This document shows, piece by piece, positions 5,172 to 20,051 of a stretch of DNA of 35,712 nt (within the stretch, counting starts at the first letter, position 1; each line of letters begins with the position of its first letter). The notes below the pieces were generated by a model. It ran no database searches. It was not told the DNA's origin and was given only the letters and a program-made list of their open reading frames with translations. Source of the DNA: a virus (Duplodnaviria; Heunggongvirae; Uroviricota; Caudoviricetes); the IMG/VR virus record IMGVR_UViG_2563366825_000016; one strand, given 5' to 3'. The position numbers and the translations under genes are program-made.

Positions 5172-6104
5172 CTATTCGATTTTTTTAACCATGTAGTTAC
5201 GTCGTGATGTTCCTAATCTTTCATTGTGAATCTCAGAAACGCTTACTACGAGCGATATTCGTTCACCAACTTTATATTTACTTTGAATTTCTCCTAACAT
5301 ATCAATCGGATAAGAAGCCTTTATTTTTCCAAGCTCGCTTGCAATCTCCAATTTCCCGTACATGGATAAAATAGCAAGTTCGCCTGATATATGCTCATCC
5401 GGTAGCTGAATGACCTTCGTTAAAGCTAAGCGAGCATTCAGTTTTTTTATATCTTCTGAAGAAATTGACACTTGTCTGGTACCATCACTTAAAGGTCCAA
5501 TCCAAGTAAGATCAAAGTTAAGACTATATTTTTCGCACTCATTTATGATGTTTTTTAGGTTAGCTGTTGATTGCGAACCAATTTCGGCAATTTTAGCCGT
5601 GAATGTTTCTTCATCAATGGATGAGAGTAGTGCAAAAATCTCCTTAACAGCATGACTGGATACTGTTTCGATGAGCTCGCAAGAACCAGTAGAAAAAGTA
5701 ACACCTAACTTCGTCGAACCTGGACGCAAGTCTGCCAATCTCATGTCTAATGATTTTTTAACATCAATCGGCACACGACTAGAATCTTTCCCAGATCCAA
5801 GTCGGTAAACTGCTTTCTGTACAAGGGATGCGAGATTACCTGAAATTACAGATAGAATATCTAACGGAATAGACCCGAAATCGACCAAAACACCTTTTAA
5901 TCTCAACTCCATGAAATCACGTAAAGGATGTTGGTTATCGATTGCACGTTGTCTCTCTCGGAGATCGCTCAGATGGGAGTCAAGTGATCTAAATATAATG
6001 TCATCAGCAAATGATCTCCCCTTATTTTGAGCAAGCAGATCCACATCGCGTTGAATGAACGCAATTCGCTCCTTGAGGGAGTTGAATGTTTTTTCTTCGC
6101 TCAT
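5172..6104 (-). CDS. Unknown 310-aa protein, second gene of a two-gene module downstream of cI
   Basis: Long ORF; start ATG overlaps the stop of the upstream gene (ATGA, translational coupling); GAGGGT about 7 nt upstream; AT-rich relative to the lambda-like flanks; no domain recognised from sequence. Confidence 0.8.
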   Translation of the reverse strand: MSEEKTFNSLKERIAFIQRDVDLLAQNKGRSFADDIIFRSLDSHLSDLRERQRAIDNQHPLRDFMELRLKGVLVDFGSIPLDILSVISGNLASLVQKAVYRLGSGKDSSRVPIDVKKSLDMRLADLRPGSTKLGVTFSTGSCELIETVSSHAVKEIFALLSSIDEETFTAKIAEIGSQSTANLKNIINECEKYSLNFDLTWIGPLSDGTRQVSISSEDIKKLNARLALTKVIQLPDEHISGELAILSMYGKLEIASELGKIKASYPIDMLGEIQSKYKVGERISLVVSVSEIHNERLGTSRRNYMVKKIE

Positions 6105-6574
6105 AACATTACCCTCACGAGGCCTTTAGGATTCTCCTTCCGATCAAAACCAAACCACCCTCTCCAGTAACTTCGCCTTTCACTATAATCGATTTCTGGA
6201 TGATTTTCAGGCAGCAAAAGAACGTCAATGCTGTAGTTTTCTTTAATAAAATCTCTATTTAACAATGAGCTAACCAATGGCATCAGCGTGTTTGGCAAAG
6301 AGTTTAGGGCCAAATAATCGACGACCACGAGTATATCTATGTCATCAGGTTCAGGTTTCTCTGTAGTGAATGAACCATCGATCCACACTTCAGAGAAACA
6401 TAGACACTGCTGATTAACAAGTTTAAATTGCTCAATAAGCTGTATAAAATTACAGTATAGCATACTTCTTCTAACGGATTTTGGGAAGGTGTCGACACAA
6501 AGAGACTTGATGCCATCACTATCCATATCATGAAATCCTGCTGTAAGAAGAGGTGGGAAGCTAGGCTTTTCCAT
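6101..6574 (-). CDS. 157-aa protein with nucleotidyltransferase-fold-like motif, first gene of the two-gene module downstream of cI
   Basis: AAGGA RBS about 6 nt upstream of ATG; motif WIDGSFTTEKPEPDDIDILVVVD fits the pol-beta-type nucleotidyltransferase signature G[SG]-x9-13-DxD; located 81 bp downstream of the cI stop on the same strand. Confidence 0.8.
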   Translation of the reverse strand: MEKPSFPPLLTAGFHDMDSDGIKSLCVDTFPKSVRRSMLYCNFIQLIEQFKLVNQQCLCFSEVWIDGSFTTEKPEPDDIDILVVVDYLALNSLPNTLMPLVSSLLNRDFIKENYSIDVLLLPENHPEIDYSERRSYWRGWFGFDRKENPKGLVRVML

Positions 6575-6655: not shown

Positions 6656-7348
6656 TTAACCATGCTTCCTGTACGTCTGCGGCATGCTCCCAATAACCTT
6701 ACCGAAGATGAACACCCGGTTCATCTCGTCTTTCTCGATCGGGTCCCACGGTGAGTAGCTCTTGTTATCAGAGATAACCAGTAGCTTATCTTTCATCATT
6801 TGCAGGCGCTTTACATGGGCTGTGTCGTCGTACAGAAACGCATAGATACCATCACCGTCGAAAGATTTAACCGTGATATCAACGAACAGCAGATCACCTG
6901 GTTCGATCGTTCCTGACATGCTGTCACCACGCACGTTAATGATGCGGATATTTTCCGCCTTCCTGCCATCGAACATGTGACGAGCATCGTCAAACGAGTA
7001 CTCAACCGAGCGTAGAACTTCTACAAACTCACGGTTGATTACACCCGGCCCGGCACTGACTTCTATATCAAGAACGTCAATTTTGAAGTATTTGGAATGG
7101 CTGACAGCAGGCTTCCCTGATTGTTGACCGTCATTTCTCATCGGGCCTATGCCTGATGAGAGCCATTCTGTTCGAACACCCAATGCATTAGCTATTTCAA
7201 CAATTTTTGTTGAGCCGCGCGCGTTGCCGCTTGTCAGTCTCCAGATTGTGGGTTGAGCTACGCCAGACGCCTTTGCAAGAGCGCCTTGAGACATTCCAGA
7301 TTGTTCCATCGCTAGGTTTAAGCGATCAGCAAGAGTTTCTTTTTTCAT
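6656..7348 (-). CDS. cI: CI-type prophage repressor (HTH + LexA-like S24 peptidase domain)
   Basis: N-terminal HTH (SQGALAKASGVAQPTIWRL); C-terminal autocleavage motifs VRGDSMSGTIEPGDLLFVD and HVKRL (Ser/Lys dyad); track start at 7384 is TTG, so I place the start at the ATG (MKKETLADRL) at 7348. Confidence 0.88.
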   Translation of the reverse strand: MKKETLADRLNLAMEQSGMSQGALAKASGVAQPTIWRLTSGNARGSTKIVEIANALGVRTEWLSSGIGPMRNDGQQSGKPAVSHSKYFKIDVLDIEVSAGPGVINREFVEVLRSVEYSFDDARHMFDGRKAENIRIINVRGDSMSGTIEPGDLLFVDITVKSFDGDGIYAFLYDDTAHVKRLQMMKDKLLVISDNKSYSPWDPIEKDEMNRVFIFGKVIGSMPQTYRKHG

Positions 7349-7458
7349 AAGTTTTAATTTATACGCTTGCGTATTGATGGTCAAAACATGTTTTGCTATT
7401 GCTTGGATTAATACGCATTGCTATTATTCATTCATTGCAATACCAATAGGAATTGATA
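7349..7458. promoter_or_regulatory. Divergent cI/cro promoter-operator region (OR/PRM/PR equivalent)
   Basis: Intergenic region between divergent repressor genes; inverted repeat ATACGC-TT-GCGTAT at 7361-7374; second ATACGCA at 7411-7417; TTGCTATTG at 7393-7401 and TTGCTATTA at 7418-7426. Confidence 0.6.
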
Positions 7459-9272: not shown

Positions 9273-9970
9273 AAAACATCGCCGCACAGATGATTAACTT
9301 TGACCGTGAGCAGATGCGTCGGATCGCCAACAACATGCCGGAACAGTACGACGAAAAGCCGCAGGTACAGCAGGTAGCGCAGATCATCAACGGTGTATTC
9401 AGCCAGTTGCTGGCAACTTTCCCTGCGAGCCTGGCTAACCGTGACCAGAACGAACTGAACGAAATTCGCCGCCAGTGGGTTCTGGCTTTCCGGGAAAACG
9501 GGATCACCACAATGGAACAGGTTAACGCTGGAATGCGCGTAGCCCGTCGGCAGAATCGACCATTCCTGCCATCACCCGGGCAGTTTGTCGCCTGGTGCCG
9601 GGAAGAAGCATCCGTTACCGCCGGGCTGCCAAACGCCAGCGAGCTGGTTGATATGGTTTACGAGTATTGCCGGAAGCGCGGGCTGTATCCGGATGCAGAG
9701 TCTTATCCGTGGAAATCAAACGCGCACTACTGGCTGGTTACCAACCTGTATCAGAACATGCGGGCCAATGCGTTGACTGACTCGGAATTACGGCGCAAGG
9801 CTGCCGATGAACTTGCCCATATGACTGCGAGAATTAACCGTGGTGAGGCTATACCTGAACCAGTAAAACAACTTCCTGTCATGGGCGGTAGACCTCTAAA
9901 TCGTGCACAGGCTCTGACGAAGATTGCAGAAATCAAAGCTAAGTTCGGACTGAAAGGAGCCAGTGTATGA
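9269..9970 (+). CDS. P: Replication protein P (helicase loader), 233 aa
   Basis: Length and sequence (MKNIAAQMINFDREQMRRIANNMPEQYDEKPQ...) match my recollection of lambda P; 4-bp overlap with O. Confidence 0.93.
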   Translation: MKNIAAQMINFDREQMRRIANNMPEQYDEKPQVQQVAQIINGVFSQLLATFPASLANRDQNELNEIRRQWVLAFRENGITTMEQVNAGMRVARRQNRPFLPSPGQFVAWCREEASVTAGLPNASELVDMVYEYCRKRGLYPDAESYPWKSNAHYWLVTNLYQNMRANALTDSELRRKAADELAHMTARINRGEAIPEPVKQLPVMGGRPLNRAQALTKIAEIKAKFGLKGASV

Positions 9971-10260
9971 CGGGAAAAGAAGCAATTATTCATTACCTGG
10001 GGACGCATAAGAGCTTCTGTGCGCAGGACGTTGCTGCGGTAACAGGCGCAACAGTAACCAGCATAAATCAGGCTGCGGCTAAAATGGCGCGGACAGGAAT
10101 CTTAGTTATTGATGGTAAGGTCTGGCGAACGGTGTATTACCGGTTCGCTACCAGGGAAGAACGGGAAGGAAAGGTGAGCACGAATCTGATTTTCAAGGAG
10201 TGTCGCCAGAGTGCCGCGATGAAGCGGGTGTTGGCATTTTATCGCGGCAATTTTCAATAG
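9967..10260 (+). CDS. ren: Ren exclusion protein, 97 aa
   Basis: MTGKEAIIHYLGTHKSFCAQDVAAVTGATVTSINQAAAKMARTGILVIDGKVWRTVYYRFATREEREGK... matches lambda Ren; overlaps the P stop. Confidence 0.9.
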   Translation: MTGKEAIIHYLGTHKSFCAQDVAAVTGATVTSINQAAAKMARTGILVIDGKVWRTVYYRFATREEREGKVSTNLIFKECRQSAAMKRVLAFYRGNFQ

Positions 10261-10297
10261 ACTATGTACATAAAAATATCATTTTTTTAATACATGT

Positions 10298-10489
10298 CTA
10301 ATTATTGGACGAAATTGGTTTTTGCTTTGGTTTAGTTAGCCTAGCAATCAAGCCAGAGGCAATAATGATGATCCAAGCAATTTGATGCAATGCTACTCCA
10401 ATATAAGAACCTTTATAGATAATAAAGGCATAGATCGCTAGAAACGAAATAAATATCCATAACGAAAGTTGATAAATTTTGGCGCGCAT
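10298..10489 (-). CDS. Small hydrophobic (2-TM) membrane protein, about 63 aa
   Basis: ORF with two hydrophobic stretches (LSLWIFISFLAIYAFIIY; IAWIIIIASGLIA); in an AT-rich segment; weak RBS; start at the ATG at 10489 rather than the track TTG. Confidence 0.4.
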   Translation of the reverse strand: MRAKIYQLSLWIFISFLAIYAFIIYKGSYIGVALHQIAWIIIIASGLIARLTKPKQKPISSNN

Positions 10490-10745
10490 ATTTAATCCAA
10501 TCAATCAGAAAGACGAGTAATCATAGAGGTACTATCACCCGGGTAACTATTGCTATTATGAACGGATAGGATAGAGGCTTCAATAACATATGCATCAAGT
10601 ATGATGGAATATGTAGGTGAAAATGACTTGTGTCAAATTTGTGGAAATGAGTACCATGTTTCTCTGAAATTGATGTCGTTAATGGCTAGTGATAGTGAAC
10701 TTTTTTACTTTATAATTCCTTTGGTTATAACAATAAGGTAAATTT

Positions 10746-11306
10746 ATGAAGAAGATAATATTATTAGCCATGATTATTGGTTCTTTAACAGGTTGCGCTA
10801 GTGTGCCACCATTGAATTTTTCAACACCTAACGTGGGAGTTAGCCAGAAAAAAATAGATGCTGAAATTAAGTCATTAACGGTATCACTTGCTCGTCCAGA
10901 TGAGCAGAAAGGGGATATCACTGCTGGTATGGAGGCTATAACTCCAATTTGGCGTGAATCTTTGCAGGAAGCACTCGACCGAATGACTATTTTTCGTGAT
11001 AGTTCACCAAATACGGTTAGCTTAAATGTTAAAGTGTTGGCTCTTGACGTTCCTGCTTTTGGTGTTTCAATGACAACTAAAGCAATTGCAAGGTATGAAA
11101 TAATCAACCGTGCGAATGGTGATATTATATATACGCAGGATATTGAGTCTACCGGTACTGTTCCAGCCAGTTACGCATTCTACGGTATTGTTCGAGCACG
11201 CGAATCTGTTAATCGCGCGGTGCAAAACAACATAACGCAGTTCTTGCAAGCATTAGAAAGTGTTGATCTTTCTCGTCCAATGTTTCCTGTTAGGGTAGCT
11301 AAATGA
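10746..11306 (+). CDS. Lipoprotein (186 aa) of unknown function
   Basis: Signal peptide with lipobox LTGC (MKKIILLAMIIGSLTGCAS); AT-rich; no domain recognised. Confidence 0.8.
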   Translation: MKKIILLAMIIGSLTGCASVPPLNFSTPNVGVSQKKIDAEIKSLTVSLARPDEQKGDITAGMEAITPIWRESLQEALDRMTIFRDSSPNTVSLNVKVLALDVPAFGVSMTTKAIARYEIINRANGDIIYTQDIESTGTVPASYAFYGIVRARESVNRAVQNNITQFLQALESVDLSRPMFPVRVAK

Positions 11307-11755
11307 AGCGATTATTCGTAATTGCTCCACTCTTAGTGTTGGTTGGATGCGCACAAAATATATCGCCAAATAGTTATTCTGTTGGCTCTGTGGGCATGGT
11401 TAATCGAACTATCGCTGGTACAGTTATTAGTGCTAGGGGGGTTGATATCAGTGGGACTTCCGCGTTAGGCGGGACTGCTGGGGCTGCCGTGGGGGCAACC
11501 GCTGGTTCTGCGCTTGGTGGGGGAGTTCGTTCTAATATCGTTGGTGCCGTTGGTGGTGCAGTCATTGGTGGTATTGCCGGGGCAGCAATCGAATCTTCAG
11601 CAACAAAACAAACAGGCATGGAATATGTTGTCGAAACTGAGAATGGGAATTTAATGACCATTGTTCAAGGCAAAGATCCGTTATTTACTCAAGGAAGTAA
11701 GGTCCTTGTTTTATACGGAAACCCTTCTCGCATAATAACAGACCCGCGTCACTAA
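11303..11755 (+). CDS. Glycine-zipper outer-membrane-type lipoprotein (150 aa)
   Basis: Lipobox LVGCAQ; long Gly/Ala-rich stretch GTSALGGTAGAAVGATAGSALGGG...GGAVIGGIAGAAI typical of glycine-zipper lipoproteins (SlyB / 17-kDa antigen type); 4-bp overlap with the preceding lipoprotein gene. Confidence 0.8.
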   Translation: MKRLFVIAPLLVLVGCAQNISPNSYSVGSVGMVNRTIAGTVISARGVDISGTSALGGTAGAAVGATAGSALGGGVRSNIVGAVGGAVIGGIAGAAIESSATKQTGMEYVVETENGNLMTIVQGKDPLFTQGSKVLVLYGNPSRIITDPRH

Positions 11756-11945
11756 CATACCTTTTGATTTTGTAAAATCAATTCGTAATAATAAAGTCAT
11801 CGGAGCTTGAACAACTCCGGTGACTTCTGCGCTAAACGGGGACGTTTATGCGCACATACAATCCAAACTCTCTTCTCCCTTCACAGATGCAGAAATGCAC
11901 CTGCGATTTTTTGCATCCAGCGTCTGACCTCTGCGGAGGTGAAGC

Positions 11946-12401
11946 GTGAACCTACCACAAGATGGCATCAAACTGCATCGCGGTAACTTCACCGCTATCG
12001 GCCAGCAGATCCAGCCTTATCTGGAGGACGGAAAATGCTTTCGCATGGTGCTTAAACCGTGGCGTGAGAAACGCAGTCTTTCCCAGAATGCACTCAGCCA
12101 CATGTGGTACAGCGAAATCAGTGAATACCTCATCAGCAGGGGGAAATCGTTCGCTACCGCAGCATGGGTAAAAGATGCTCTCAAACACACATACCTCGGT
12201 TATGAAACCAAGGACCTGGTTGATGTCGTAACCGGCGAAATCACTACTATCCAGTCGTTACGCCATACTTCCGATCTTGATACCGGAGAGATGTATGTCT
12301 TCCTGTGTAAGGTTGAAGCCTGGGCGATGAATATTGGCTGCCACCTGACTATTCCGCAGAGCTGCGAGTTCCAGCTGCTGCGCGACAAGCAGGAGGCGTA
12401 A
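11946..12401 (+). CDS. ybcN: YbcN-like nin-region protein (151 aa), GTG start
   Basis: Sequence matches my recollection of DLP12 YbcN; begins the nin-type gene block. Confidence 0.8.
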
Positions 12402-14008: not shown

Positions 14009-15106
14009 TTAGAACTGGTAAACCAGACCTACAGCAACGATGTCATCAGTGCTTACACCGAGTGCTTTAGTGAAGTCATTTTTGTCAAGCAGGTTGATTT
14101 TGTAATCAACGAAAGTAGACATATTTTTGTTGAAGTAATAGGTTGCACCTACATCAACATATTTGACTAAGTCCTGATCGCCCCATACTCCAAGATCCTT
14201 ACCTTTAGATTGCAGGTAAGCAACGGACGGACGCAGACCGAAATCGAACTGATATTGTGCAACAGCTTCGAAGTTTTGAGCTTTATTAGCAACGAAGTGA
14301 TCAGCAAATACAGTCATATTCTGGGTTTCAGAATAGGTAGTGGCCAGGTAAATGTTGTTAGCGTCATATTTCAGACCTGCGGCCCAAACTTCTGCATTTT
14401 TACCGGAAGCAAATACTTCAGGAAGAACTTTCCCTGCATTAACTTGAGTGTCGGTACGATCAGATTTCGCATAAGTTGCACCGATACCGAATCCTTCGTA
14501 TTCATAGGTAGCAGAGAAACCGAAGCCATCACCGTTACCTTCAGTGTAGTGATCGAAATCGCTACGATCGTTTTTGCCTTGGTACTGAGCAGCAAAGTTC
14601 AGACCATCAACCAGACCAAAGAAGTCGTTGTTACGATAGGTTGCAACACCAGTGGTACGACCAGTCATGAACACATCTGTTTGGGTCCAGGTATCGCCAC
14701 CGAATTCTGGCAGAACGTCAGTCCACGCACCGATGTCGTATGCTACACCGTAGTTACGGCCGTAATCGATTGAGCCGTAGTCACCGAATTTCAGGCCTGC
14801 AAATGCAAGACGGGTTTTGTCTTTGGAGGAACCTTGAGATTCAGCGCGGTTGCCTTTGAATTCATATTCCCACTGACCGAAACCAGTCAGCTGATCGTTG
14901 ATTTGGGTTTCACCTTTGAAGCCAAGACGGGCATAAGTAGTATCACCATCATCTGCATCATTAGAGGAGAAGTAGTGCTTAGCATTAACTTTCCCGTACA
15001 GATCCAGCTTGTTACTGTCTTTATTATAAATTTCAGCTGCCTGAGCAGACATCGCCATCAGTACTGATGCAGCTACAGCAGAAATTGCCACTGTTAATTT
15101 TTTCAT
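14009..15106 (-). CDS. nmpC: Outer membrane general porin (NmpC/OmpD-like), 365 aa, intact
   Basis: Signal peptide [29 protein letters not shown], typical porin beta-barrel sequence ending in the C-terminal ...VAVGLVYQF; uninterrupted ORF. Confidence 0.95.
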
Positions 15107-15975: not shown

Positions 15976-17517
15976 ATGCCAACAGTTCCAATTTCTATGA
16001 GAAAACTTAAAGAAATTCTTAGGCTTAAATACGGTGTTGGACTCAGCCATCGACAAATTGGTCGTAGTCTTGCAATCTCCCCTTCCGTTGTATCCAGATA
16101 TGCTAATCGGGCGGCTCAACTTGGCATAAAGCAGTGGCCCTTACCTACAGGATGGGATGATACAAAACTAAAACATGCGTTCCTTCAGACCCAGGTTAAG
16201 ATGAAGAAGCACTCTCTGCCTGACTGGGCTACAGTACACCGGGAACTGCGTAATAAATGCGTGACGCTGCAGCTACTCTGGGAAGAATACTGTGAGCGTA
16301 ATCCAGGCGGTTTTTACAGCTATAACCATTACTGCCGGATGTACCGTGAATGGCTCAAAACCACTTCACCATCAATGCGTCAGGTACATAAAGCTGGCGA
16401 AAAACTTTTCGTTGATTACTGTGGACCTACCGTTGGCGTTACCGACCCTGAGACCGGAGAAATAAGAACTGCTCAGGTCATCGTAGCTGTTCTCGGGGCA
16501 TCAAGTTACACATGGGCAGAGGCCACCTGGTCTCAGCAGCTTGAAGACTGGGTGATGAGTCATGTTCGCTGCTTCCAGTGGTTGGGTGGCGTTCCTGAAC
16601 TTGTTGTTCCGGACAATCTGAAAAGCGCCACATCCAGGGCATGTAAGTATGATCCTGACGTTAACCCTACCTACCAGCAGATGCTTGAGCATTATAATGT
16701 CGCAGTTTTGCCTGCGCGGCCACGTAAACCGAAAGATAAAGCCAAAGCTGAAGTTGGCGTTCAGGTTGTTGAACGCTGGATCATGGCCCGAATCAGGCAT
16801 GAGATCTTCTACAGCCTTGCATCGCTTAATCAGCGCATTCGGGAGTTGCTGGAAAGACTGAATAACAAAATAATGCAGAAGTTGGGTTATTCACGTGCAG
16901 AACTCTTCATCCAGCTTGATAAACCCGCACTGAAGCCTCTTCCTGAAGCCAGTTACAGTTACACCCTGGTGAAGAAAGTCAGAGTTCATGCCGATTACCA
17001 CGTGGAAATCGACAAACATTACTACTCGGTTCCATGTTCGCTGTTAGGCCAGCAACTGGAAGCATGGATCTCCGGAGAACTGGTAAGACTCTTCAATCAG
17101 GGGCAGGAGGTTGCTGTGCACCCGCGCAAGCGTACTTATGGCTACAGTACCCGCAACGAGCACATGCCTGAAGCTCATCGACAGCATGCCACCTGGACGC
17201 CAGAGCGTCTTCTGGAATGGGCGGGGCACATAGGCAGTGAAACTCATAGTTATGTGCTTCATATACTGAACTCTCGTCCACATCCGGAACAAAGCTATCG
17301 CTTCTGCCTTGGACTCCTGAACCTTCATAAAAAATACAGTAAAGCCAGACTTAATGCAGCATGTGCAAGAGCTCTGAAAACAAAGGTATGGCGTCTGTCA
17401 GGTATTAAATCGATCCTGGAAAAAGGTCTGGATAAACAACCTGTTCAGGATCCAAAACCAGATCTGTTATCCACGATGGAACACGAAAACGTACGCGGCA
17501 GTGAGTATTACCACTGA
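15976..17517 (+). CDS. istA: IS21-family transposase IstA (513 aa)
   Basis: N-terminal HTH, DDE-type integrase core; AAGGA RBS; gene order istA-istB typical of the IS21 family. Confidence 0.93.
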   Translation: MPTVPISMRKLKEILRLKYGVGLSHRQIGRSLAISPSVVSRYANRAAQLGIKQWPLPTGWDDTKLKHAFLQTQVKMKKHSLPDWATVHRELRNKCVTLQLLWEEYCERNPGGFYSYNHYCRMYREWLKTTSPSMRQVHKAGEKLFVDYCGPTVGVTDPETGEIRTAQVIVAVLGASSYTWAEATWSQQLEDWVMSHVRCFQWLGGVPELVVPDNLKSATSRACKYDPDVNPTYQQMLEHYNVAVLPARPRKPKDKAKAEVGVQVVERWIMARIRHEIFYSLASLNQRIRELLERLNNKIMQKLGYSRAELFIQLDKPALKPLPEASYSYTLVKKVRVHADYHVEIDKHYYSVPCSLLGQQLEAWISGELVRLFNQGQEVAVHPRKRTYGYSTRNEHMPEAHRQHATWTPERLLEWAGHIGSETHSYVLHILNSRPHPEQSYRFCLGLLNLHKKYSKARLNAACARALKTKVWRLSGIKSILEKGLDKQPVQDPKPDLLSTMEHENVRGSEYYH

Positions 17518-17528
17518 TACGGGATCCA

Positions 17529-18278
17529 ATGATGAATCATCTTTACGAACAACTGACCGCACTTAAACTCACCGGCTTCCGTGATGCGCTTAAAAAGCAA
17601 CTTGCTCAGCCGGGCACATACCAGGAGCTGGGCTTCGAAGAACGCCTGTCATTACTGACAGCAGAAGAACTACCCTGCCGTGAAAACAGGAAGGCAGAGC
17701 GTCTGATCAAACATGCACGGTTCAGACTTAATGCTGAGTTATCAAAGCTGGATTATCGTAACAATAGAGGGCTGGACAGGGCCCTCATCCGTTCACTCAG
17801 TCAGGGAAACTGGTTAACCCTGAAACAAAATATTTTACTGACCGGGGCCACCGGCAGCGGTAAAACGTTCCTGGCATGTGCACTTGGTCATAATGCCTGC
17901 CGACAGGGATACAAGGTCTACTATTATCGCCTTAAAGCGCTGATGGAACAGTGCTATCAGGGGCATGCTGATGGAAGATACAGCAAACTTTTGACCAGGC
18001 TGAATAATAGCGATCTGCTGCTTCTGGATGACTGGGGGCTGGAACCTCTCTCATCAGAACAGCGTAGCGACCTGCTGGAAATAGTGGATCTGATGTACCA
18101 ACGAGGCTCAATCATCGTAGTGAGCCAGTTGCCGGTGGAAAACTGGTACAAAATGATCGGAGACTCCACACATGCGGATGCCATCCTAGATCGACTGGTT
18201 CATGGCAGTATCAAGATCGAACTTAAAGGAGAATCAATGCGGAAAATACAATCTCCGTTGACCGAAGGAGATCAGTGA
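17529..18278 (+). CDS. istB: IS21-family ATP-binding helper IstB (249 aa)
   Basis: Walker A motif GATGSGKT and Walker B LLLLDDWG; DnaC-like AAA+ protein immediately downstream of istA. Confidence 0.93.
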   Translation: MMNHLYEQLTALKLTGFRDALKKQLAQPGTYQELGFEERLSLLTAEELPCRENRKAERLIKHARFRLNAELSKLDYRNNRGLDRALIRSLSQGNWLTLKQNILLTGATGSGKTFLACALGHNACRQGYKVYYYRLKALMEQCYQGHADGRYSKLLTRLNNSDLLLLDDWGLEPLSSEQRSDLLEIVDLMYQRGSIIVVSQLPVENWYKMIGDSTHADAILDRLVHGSIKIELKGESMRKIQSPLTEGDQ

Positions 18279-19467: not shown

Positions 19468-19761
19468 TTATTGTGAGCAATACACACGCGCTTCCAGCGG
19501 AGTATAAATGCCTAAAGTAATAAAACCGAGCAATCCATTTACGAATGTTTGCTGGGTTTCTGTTTTAACAACATTTTCTGCGCCGCCACAAATTTTGGCT
19601 GCATCGACAGTTTTCTTCTGCCCAATTCCAGAAACGAAGAAATGATGAGTGATGGTTTCCTTTGGTGCTACTGCTGCCGGTTTGTTTTGAACAGTAAACG
19701 TCTGTTGAGCACATCCTGTAATAAGCAGGGCCAGCGCAGTAGCGAGTAGCATTTTTTTCAT
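19468..19761 (-). CDS. bor: Bor lipoprotein (serum-resistance-associated), 97 aa
   Basis: MKKMLLATALALLITGCAQQTFTVQNKPAAVAPKETITHHFFVSGIGQKK... matches lambda Bor; lipobox ITGC. Confidence 0.95.
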   Translation of the reverse strand: MKKMLLATALALLITGCAQQTFTVQNKPAAVAPKETITHHFFVSGIGQKKTVDAAKICGGAENVVKTETQQTFVNGLLGFITLGIYTPLEARVYCSQ

Positions 19762-20051
19762 GGTGTTATTCCCGATGCTTTTTGAAGTTCGCAGAATCGT
19801 ATGTGTAGAAAATTAAACAAACCCTAAACAATGAGTTGAAATTTCATATTGTTAATATTTATTAATGTATGTCAGGTGCGATGAATCGTCATTGTATTCC
19901 CGGATTAACTATGTCCACAGCCCTGACGGGGAACTTCTCTGCGGGAGTGTCCGGGAATAATTAAAAACGATGCACACAGGGTTTAGCGCGTACACGTATT
20001 GCATTATGCCAACGCCCCGGTGCTGACACGGAAGAAACCGGACGTTATGAT

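Follow-up and report, generated by a model that had tools for sequence, protein, structure and literature searches.

Why does a lambdoid prophage carry two overlapping lipoprotein genes in an AT-rich block between ren and ybcN, and what could the pair do for the lysogen? The question is raised by IMG/VR record IMGVR_UViG_2563366825_000016, a stretch of 35,712 nucleotides (nt), hereafter the window, which is a DLP12-like lambdoid prophage of Escherichia coli. In it, the gene for a 186-amino-acid (aa) lipoprotein (10746..11306, + strand) runs into the gene for a 150-aa SlyB-like lipoprotein (11303..11755, +); the two together are referred to here as the cassette. An earlier, sequence-only reading of this DNA had proposed moron-like cargo at a variable site with two coupled outer-membrane lipoproteins, and the junctions of the block, the ATGA overlap of the genes, and the alanine at position +2 of both products all agree with this proposal. 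We found that the two genes make up an operon of their own that spreads horizontally, and that temperate phages of several bacterial groups have picked it up repeatedly and independently. A role in reinforcing the outer membrane of the lysogen is our preferred, tentative explanation.

The lipoprotein gene pair

The two genes overlap by the four nucleotides ATGA. The upstream gene is preceded by the ribosome-binding site AAGG (10735-10738) and encodes a signal peptide with the lipobox LTGC, and the downstream gene encodes the lipobox LVGC, a Gly/Ala zipper, and a C-terminal beta domain; the lipoboxes and the zipper had already been read from the sequence. The lipobox cysteine is invariant in all 58 homologues compared for the 186-aa family and in all 49 compared for the 150-aa family. 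When both genes were compared with their counterparts in Klebsiella, Edaphovirga, a Pantoea-type phage, Bordetella, and Stenotrophomonas, the proportion of synonymous differences (pS) was 0.72-0.95, which is saturated, against 0.10-0.30 for non-synonymous differences (pN). The invariant cysteine, together with a low pN at saturated synonymous sites, indicates that both open reading frames (ORFs) are real genes under strong purifying selection. From the lipobox and the alanine at +2, both products are predicted to be exported, lipidated, and sorted to the outer membrane. The two genes are translationally coupled and co-inherited. Directly after the lipid-bearing cysteine, each family has a nearly invariant tether (PPLNFSVPNVG in the 186-aa family and NISPxxYSVGSVG in the 150-aa family). 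Such conservation is unusual for lipoprotein linkers and suggests that the tethers serve as binding interfaces.

The 150-aa protein is a full-length homologue, or paralogue, of SlyB. It shares 33% identity with K-12 SlyB over its full length (BLASTP, E = 7e-13), and the profile of its family matches the SlyB structures PDB 7OJF/7OJG with an E-value of 2.8e-15 (residues 2-150 against 3-155). The AlphaFold2 model comprises a strand, two long helices (55-71 and 75-101) that form a two-helix glycine zipper, and a C-terminal beta domain. In Foldseek, its sole significant PDB match was 7OJF (E = 1.2e-8, probability 1.00), and its match to the exclusion lipoprotein TraT was not significant (E = 0.14). 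Homologues fall into 581 clusters (E ≤ 1e-3), and many of the close ones carry precomputed PF13488 or PF05433 matches. They constitute a separate, tightly conserved SlyB subfamily with a mean column identity of 65%.

Homologues of the 186-aa protein form 512 clusters at the same threshold, and its profile reaches 970 clusters at 50% identity. A homology and structure search had been proposed for this protein at the outset; it returned a fold and a protein family of phage origin (PHROG 12521), and no Pfam or NCBIfam family: at E ≤ 0.1 there was no match in either database except a chance-level one to IglE, and the YajG model PF03923 was unmatched. The structural model is confident, with a predicted local distance difference test score (pLDDT) of 87 and a predicted template modelling score (pTM) of 0.80. 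It has a beta-alpha-beta-beta-beta-alpha fold, in which two helices lie against a four-to-five-stranded antiparallel sheet behind the lipidated N-terminus, as is characteristic of the LptE/PqiC/PelC type. Fold-comparison values were 13.3 for XCC0632/DUF330, 10.5 for PelC, 9.9 for LptE, 9.5 for PqiC, 9.3 for CsgG, and 7.1 for TraT. The protein is thus modelled with the core fold of LptE, PqiC, PelC, and TraT.

Database names for the 186-aa protein include “UDP-N-acetylglucosamine acyltransferase”, “hypothetical” and, most recently from the Prokaryotic Genome Annotation Pipeline (PGAP), “YajG family lipoprotein”. The first of these is an annotation error, because the protein has a lipoprotein signal peptide and a confident alpha/beta model instead of a hexapeptide left-handed beta-helix; Hexapep and LpxA matches were likewise missing from the Pfam search. 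Similarity to E. coli YajG amounts to 26% identity (BLASTP, E = 2e-4), part of which comes from the signal peptide and lipobox, and the same applies to the profile scores (hhalign 76%, or 86% with a wider profile; hmmsearch 21.9 bits). The 186-aa protein is at most a possible distant relative of YajG and probably not a member of that family.

Spread of the cassette and its capture by temperate phages

A scan of one genome per species detected the 186-aa family in 76 species, comprising Gamma-, Beta-, and Alphaproteobacteria as well as metagenome-assembled genomes labelled as Chthoniobacteraceae and Desulfobulbaceae. Identity from Alphaproteobacteria to Verrucomicrobiota is 46-85%. In 69 of the 76 species loci, the gene immediately downstream, on the same strand, is SlyB-like. 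Clustering of the flanking ORFs in these loci gave just the pair and antisense shadows, with no third conserved gene, and in a Pfam census the 82 upstream neighbours of the cassette represented 77 families. By the same two analyses, lptD, pqiAB, and pelB, the genes of the LptD, PqiAB, and PelB machines, are not near the cassette, and the SlyB-like gene is its sole conserved neighbour. Most members of the pair family occupy chromosomal sites that are not phage-related and have no conserved neighbours. For example, the cassette adjoins umuDC and a SRAP gene in Klebsiella oxytoca, and in Bordetella it is found among toxin-antitoxin and transposase genes. Eight Stenotrophomonas genomes share one chromosomal cassette site.

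In Luteimonas and another Xanthomonadales-like contig, the cassette lies beside the gene for an extracytoplasmic function (ECF) sigma factor and near tol-pal. The cassette and the ECF sigma factor gene are divergent in the Xanthomonadales-type loci L125/L126 and L005, and in L125/L126 queC/queE and a ybgF-pal-tolB-tolA-tolR-tolQ cluster can be found a few kb away. This neighbourhood may hint at regulation by envelope stress in Xanthomonadales-type hosts. Solo 186-aa genes were also observed, in two Photorhabdus loci where repeat-rich sequence follows the gene (L054, L057), in Budvicia (L059), and in three viral loci (L119-L121). These are natural cases that could show whether the SlyB-like partner is dispensable.

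In the window, the cassette is part of a cargo block of 1.53 kb (~10230-11761). The block is AT-rich, as the sequence-only reading had noted: GC content is 0.32-0.42 over 10150-11350 compared with 0.47-0.59 in the upstream O, P, and ren genes. Comparison by BLAST with K-12 DLP12 and phages PhiR34_1 and PhiR68_2 placed the left junction at 10229-10233, in the 3′-end of ren, and the right junction at 11762. Since all three hold an emrE-ylcJ-ybcK-ybcL-ybcM block of 4.07 kb between identical junctions, the site is a variable cargo site. The suspicion that its content is not that of DLP12 (emrE, ybcK-M) was therefore well founded, and the comparison of the ren-ybcN interval across related prophages that had been suggested revealed an alternative allele. 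The lipoprotein block is moron-like, with a junction that is differently filled in related phages and a deviating base composition.

The same block is present in the sequenced phage PhiR30_1, the record of which gives E. coli C as host, with 100% identity to the window over 10200-11850. Of 5426 complete E. coli genomes, 280, isolated from many hosts, carry the lipoprotein block at a minimum coverage of 80%, and 671 carry the emrE block. Across hundreds of E. coli genomes of varied host origin, the lipoprotein block is 100% conserved. A variant E. coli locus (L122; IMG/VR UViG_2617270945_000004, 468-1054) becomes homologous to the window at 11193, inside the 186-aa gene; its SlyB-like gene is intact, and the 5′ part of the 186-aa gene and the AT-rich leader have been replaced. 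It could be a recombinant or a truncated cassette.

We detected 37 loci in IMG/VR, made up of 21 copies of the identical E. coli block, 15 diverged copies, and one partial copy. The SlyB-like partner is present in L107-L118 and is kept in all diverged viral copies but L119-L121. Four different sites of insertion are seen. The cassette occupies the ren/nin junction in the window and PhiR30_1, lies between the tape-measure gene and gpM in the lambda-like tail module of L123/L124 (equivalent to L107-L109; GC content 0.44 against 0.54 in the flanks), and follows the terminase gene gpA and a 123-aa ORF in L112. In L111, L113, and L118, it is found 43-122 nt downstream of a cI-like repressor gene (helix-turn-helix and Peptidase_S24 domains), on the same strand and divergent from the replication genes. 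In lambda, the position downstream of the repressor is held by rexAB. The cassette is also near the repressor gene in L110 and L117, where the two are convergent. Temperate phages of several bacterial groups have thus picked up the pair repeatedly and independently. In three prophages, the placement immediately 3′ of the repressor gene and on its strand speaks for expression in the lysogen, and this recurrent capture is the best indication that lysogens gain from the pair.

Proposed role in the lysogen and competing explanations

We tentatively propose, at somewhat less than even confidence, that the cassette is lysogenic-conversion cargo and that the pair reinforces or compartmentalises the outer membrane by means of a SlyB-like ring scaffold. 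Going by its homology to SlyB, the 150-aa protein would embed its helical glycine-zipper hairpin in the outer membrane's inner leaflet and would oligomerise laterally into rings around lipid or outer-membrane proteins. The fold of the 186-aa protein and its coupling to the SlyB-like gene suggest that it could act as an adaptor or cap. A lysogen with an outer membrane reinforced or compartmentalised in this way would tolerate envelope stress better and would possibly offer less access to incoming phage or DNA. This could account for the repeated acquisition of the pair by temperate phages, at sites where it would be expressed with the repressor.

A general envelope role is supported by the SlyB ancestry of the 150-aa protein, the mostly chromosomal carriers, the conservation across phyla, and the occasional ECF sigma factor neighbour. 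Glycine-zipper lipoproteins are increasingly recognised as a family of membrane stabilisers. According to two preprints, SlyB forms ring oligomers that create nanodomains of lipid and outer-membrane proteins under outer-membrane stress (bioRxiv 10.64898/2025.12.22.696046; bioRxiv 10.64898/2026.06.08.730324; both citing Janssens et al., 2024). This scaffold role, in which such nanodomains are walled off in the stressed membrane, has been established only recently.

The sequence-only reading had likened the lipoproteins to surface factors of the kind represented by Cor/Llp or Bor/Lom. Its general direction gains contextual support from the independent captures, three of them 3′ of a cI-like repressor gene and one in a tail module, and the comparison with these particular proteins holds as an analogy only. 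The contrary idea, that the proteins would prove to be housekeeping lipoproteins with a known role, turned out to be partly right: the 150-aa protein is a paralogue of SlyB, which is a chromosomal stress lipoprotein, and most pairs are at non-phage sites.

Several observations weigh against the proposed role. The partnership is not absolute, since seven of the 76 species loci have no intact same-strand SlyB-like gene directly downstream of the 186-aa gene (six have no SlyB-like match, and in the degraded Oxalobacter locus L084 there is one nearby on the opposite strand) and the viral loci L119-L121 also have no SlyB-like partner. Every E. coli already carries slyB and yajG, which leaves the added value of a second set unexplained. 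Interaction and oligomerisation of the two proteins are inferred. The model of the 150-aa protein is only moderately confident (pLDDT 70.7), and the protein scores below the Pfam gathering cut-offs (21.1 bits against 24.2 for PF05433 and 16.9 bits against 25 for PF13488). For expression of the cassette in a lysogen of the E. coli phage, there is a candidate sigma-70 promoter (GTGATA-16-TATAAT, 10689..10716, +), located 30 nt upstream of the first lipoprotein gene, that matches the consensus at 10 of 12 positions; a scan for promoters and terminators found sigma-70-like sites to be no more numerous in the region than in shuffled sequences. The same scan gave no terminator-like site after the stop codon of the SlyB-like gene, its two sites being in the 3′-end of the gene (11690-11708) and ~130 nt downstream (11888-11905). 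Finally, a search of 10505-10745 with up to two mismatches allowed returned no PhoP box.

As the promoter and terminator counts equalled those of the shuffles, we do not claim an autonomous transcription unit. Nearby matches to the PhoP box, at 10284, 10318, and 10771, are at chance level. A PhoP box is a feature of canonical slyB and not of the whole SlyB family. The possibility that the phage cassette is wired like canonical slyB was rejected because there is no PhoP box near the cassette start.

Dedicated superinfection exclusion, in which the pair would lock or hide a receptor or block DNA entry from the periplasmic face, mainly to the benefit of the phage, appears less likely than a general envelope role. 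Known examples of exclusion lipoproteins include Llp, which acts on FhuA, and Cor, which serves exclusion in phi80/N15-type phages. Repeated capture at positions typical of exclusion genes (rexAB-like, or beside the tape-measure gene in the tail cluster) is what would be expected of such a function, and the prophage has further surface genes in its porin gene and bor. The core fold of the 186-aa partner is also common to the exclusion lipoprotein TraT (PMC12658005). However, comparison of the pair with Cor, Llp, Bor, and Lom gave no link in Pfam, in function-annotated PHROG families, in PADLOC, or in fold searches, and no other PADLOC model was linked to it by sequence, profile, or fold. The two PHROG matches, 12521 for the 186-aa protein and 13877 for the SlyB-like protein, are families of unknown function. 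Most members are moreover located at chromosomal positions unrelated to phages, and the phage receptors of the bacteria concerned differ widely. The 46-85% identity retained between Alphaproteobacteria and Verrucomicrobiota suggests that the target is universal and evolves slowly, unlike a specific receptor engaged in an arms race. An envelope stabiliser and an exclusion factor are not mutually exclusive.

A more specific and rather unlikely arrangement is that both lipoproteins assemble in the outer membrane into a single hetero-oligomeric ring, which would amount to a TraT-like exclusion device divided between two polypeptides. The SlyB-like protein would provide a membrane-embedded helical ring around a plug of lipid or outer-membrane protein, and the LptE-fold protein would provide the periplasmic core or cap. 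Temperate phages would use the ring as a receptor-independent barrier, of a type not described before, against superinfecting phage, conjugative DNA, or colicin, and in the chromosomes of many Proteobacteria it would serve as an envelope shield that can be induced. A parallel for such an architecture, and also for the preferred ring scaffold, is TraT, whose monomer unites an LptE-like core and two transmembrane helices and whose assembled form is a decameric ring with a lipid plug (PMC12658005).

It is improbable that the two genes are independent and merely linked, as a spare SlyB next to an unrelated LptE-fold lipoprotein, or that the cassette is neutral, hitch-hiking DNA. The seven species loci and three viral loci mentioned above would suit independence, as would the fact that canonical slyB works without a dedicated partner. 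Yersinia even has additional slyB paralogues whose use is unclear (bioRxiv 10.64898/2026.06.08.730324). Against this stand the same-strand adjacency in 69 of 76 species despite complete turnover of the neighbours, the overlap or tight spacing of the genes, and the strong purifying selection on both, together with the 100% conservation of the block in hundreds of E. coli genomes of varied host origin. A role in the lytic cycle, either in modulating outer-membrane disruption at lysis or in keeping released virions off debris, would fit the late tail operon of L123/L124 and, in the window, the place of the cassette in the delayed-early pR transcript, with ren on one side and the nin genes on the other, but is very improbable given that the phage already has a complete set of holin, endolysin, and Rz, that many carriers are not phages, and that the repressor-linked position in three prophages argues for lysogen expression.

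Reinforcement of the lysogen outer membrane therefore remains our preferred explanation, and PhiR30_1 with its identical block, along with sister phages that have other cargo at the same site, makes it directly testable. Regardless of function, the locus reveals a distinct SlyB subfamily that nearly always has a dedicated partner and moves as a two-gene unit in Alpha-, Beta-, and Gammaproteobacteria. In the literature on SlyB, YajG, and glycine zippers and on superinfection exclusion, we found no description of the pair or of a phage-borne SlyB; one paper on EHEC phages refers to the SlyB study, in its reference list only. If the proposal is true, current defence catalogues lack a mobile module for envelope armour or exclusion, and the cassette would also give access to the targeting or capping of SlyB-type rings.

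Neighbouring features and comparison with known systems

On its left, the cargo block is flanked by ren (9967..10260, +), in which homology to DLP12, PhiR34_1, and PhiR68_2 stops ~30 nt before the stop codon. DLP12-type homology is regained 7 nt past the stop codon of the SlyB-like gene, and this right flank (11762..12401, +) contains a ylcH-like 33-aa ORF (11848-11949, +) and ybcN/ninB (11946-12401, +). The AT-rich leader (10230..10745, 32% GC), which is seen only in the E. coli version of the cassette, contains the candidate promoter and, on the minus strand, a 63-aa ORF with two hydrophobic stretches (10298-10489; 68 aa if translation starts at TTG 10504). The sequence-only reading had taken this ORF for the gene of a small protein with two transmembrane segments. 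The ORF and its hydrophobic stretches exist, and its status as a gene is unsupported. An ORF of at least this length arises in ~10% of dinucleotide shuffles of the 485-bp spacer, and five near-identical E. coli clusters were all that a search of 5.8 billion proteins returned. Cassettes in other taxa or other phages lack it throughout, and it is not among the genes called by the current PGAP annotation. With the homology search and the shuffle test negative or neutral, this orphan ORF was rejected as a part of the system. A scan of 9900-12100 against Rfam returned a single spurious match to a long non-coding RNA, below threshold.

Elsewhere in the window, two genes (5172-6574, -) lie directly 3′ of cI (6656-7384, -), the rexAB position. 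They encode a 157-aa DUF6932 protein that matches PADLOC model PDC-M63A (E = 7e-43) and a 310-aa protein that matches PDC-M63B (E = 4e-42), and are a candidate anti-phage defence pair. An intact gene for a 365-aa porin of the NmpC/OmpD type (14009-15106, -; Porin_1, E = 1.8e-156) is also present, the K-12 DLP12 copy of which is disrupted by the insertion sequence (IS) IS5. Between the porin gene and the lysis genes is an IS21-family element (15976-18278, +) with an IstA-like transposase of 513 aa (rve and Mu-transpos_C_2 domains) and an IstB ATPase of 249 aa. As this insertion is missing from PhiR30_1, the prophage copy in the window may be lysis-impaired. An exact direct repeat that resembles a PhoP box, TGTTTAGGGTTTGTTTA, lies at 19814-19830 (-), upstream of bor (19468-19761, -) by approximately 50 nt. 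The borD gene is known to be PhoP-regulated.

Among known systems, the emrE-ybcK-ybcL-ybcM block of DLP12 resembles the lipoprotein block in its location, as an alternative cargo allele at exactly the same ren/ylcH-ybcN junction in related inducible phages. Its content is unrelated, consisting of a small multidrug resistance efflux pump, a recombinase, a periplasmic protein, and an AraC-type regulator. Cor, Llp, Bor, and Lom share with the pair that they are prophage-encoded outer-membrane proteins carried as morons, and bor is a separate gene in the window that is distinct from the cassette. YajG (PF03923, Lipoprotein_16) is, like the 186-aa protein, an outer-membrane lipoprotein of similar length. 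The resemblance is weak and covers the signal peptide, the first strand and helix, and the strands after them, and yajG sits with ampG without a SlyB-like neighbour, whereas the 186-aa gene has one.

The closest relative of the 150-aa protein is SlyB itself (E. coli b1641). A lipobox, a conserved tether, and a C-terminal beta domain are common to both, as are, in the model of the 150-aa protein, two Gly/Ala-zipper helices. Their lengths are similar (150 and 155 aa), and SlyB shares only 33% identity with the cassette protein. Its gene is monocistronic next to slyA and has a PhoP box, in contrast to the 150-aa gene, which sits with an upstream partner lipoprotein gene in a mobile cassette without a PhoP box near its start. 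For the 186-aa protein, the predicted likeness to LptE, PqiC (DUF330), PelC, and the TraT core is one of fold, at 6-15% sequence identity. The nearest architectural parallel for the pair as a whole is TraT. As an inference from architecture and not a claim of system homology, the same two building blocks that are fused in TraT would be present in the cassette as separate proteins, and the two would share a history of movement from chromosome to mobile element. Plasmids have repeatedly recruited traT, a chromosomal gene, for exclusion (PMC11733297). The SlyB family and the LptE-type fold are known kinds; what the cassette adds is their near-constant pairing, their mobility as a unit, and their repeated recruitment by phages.

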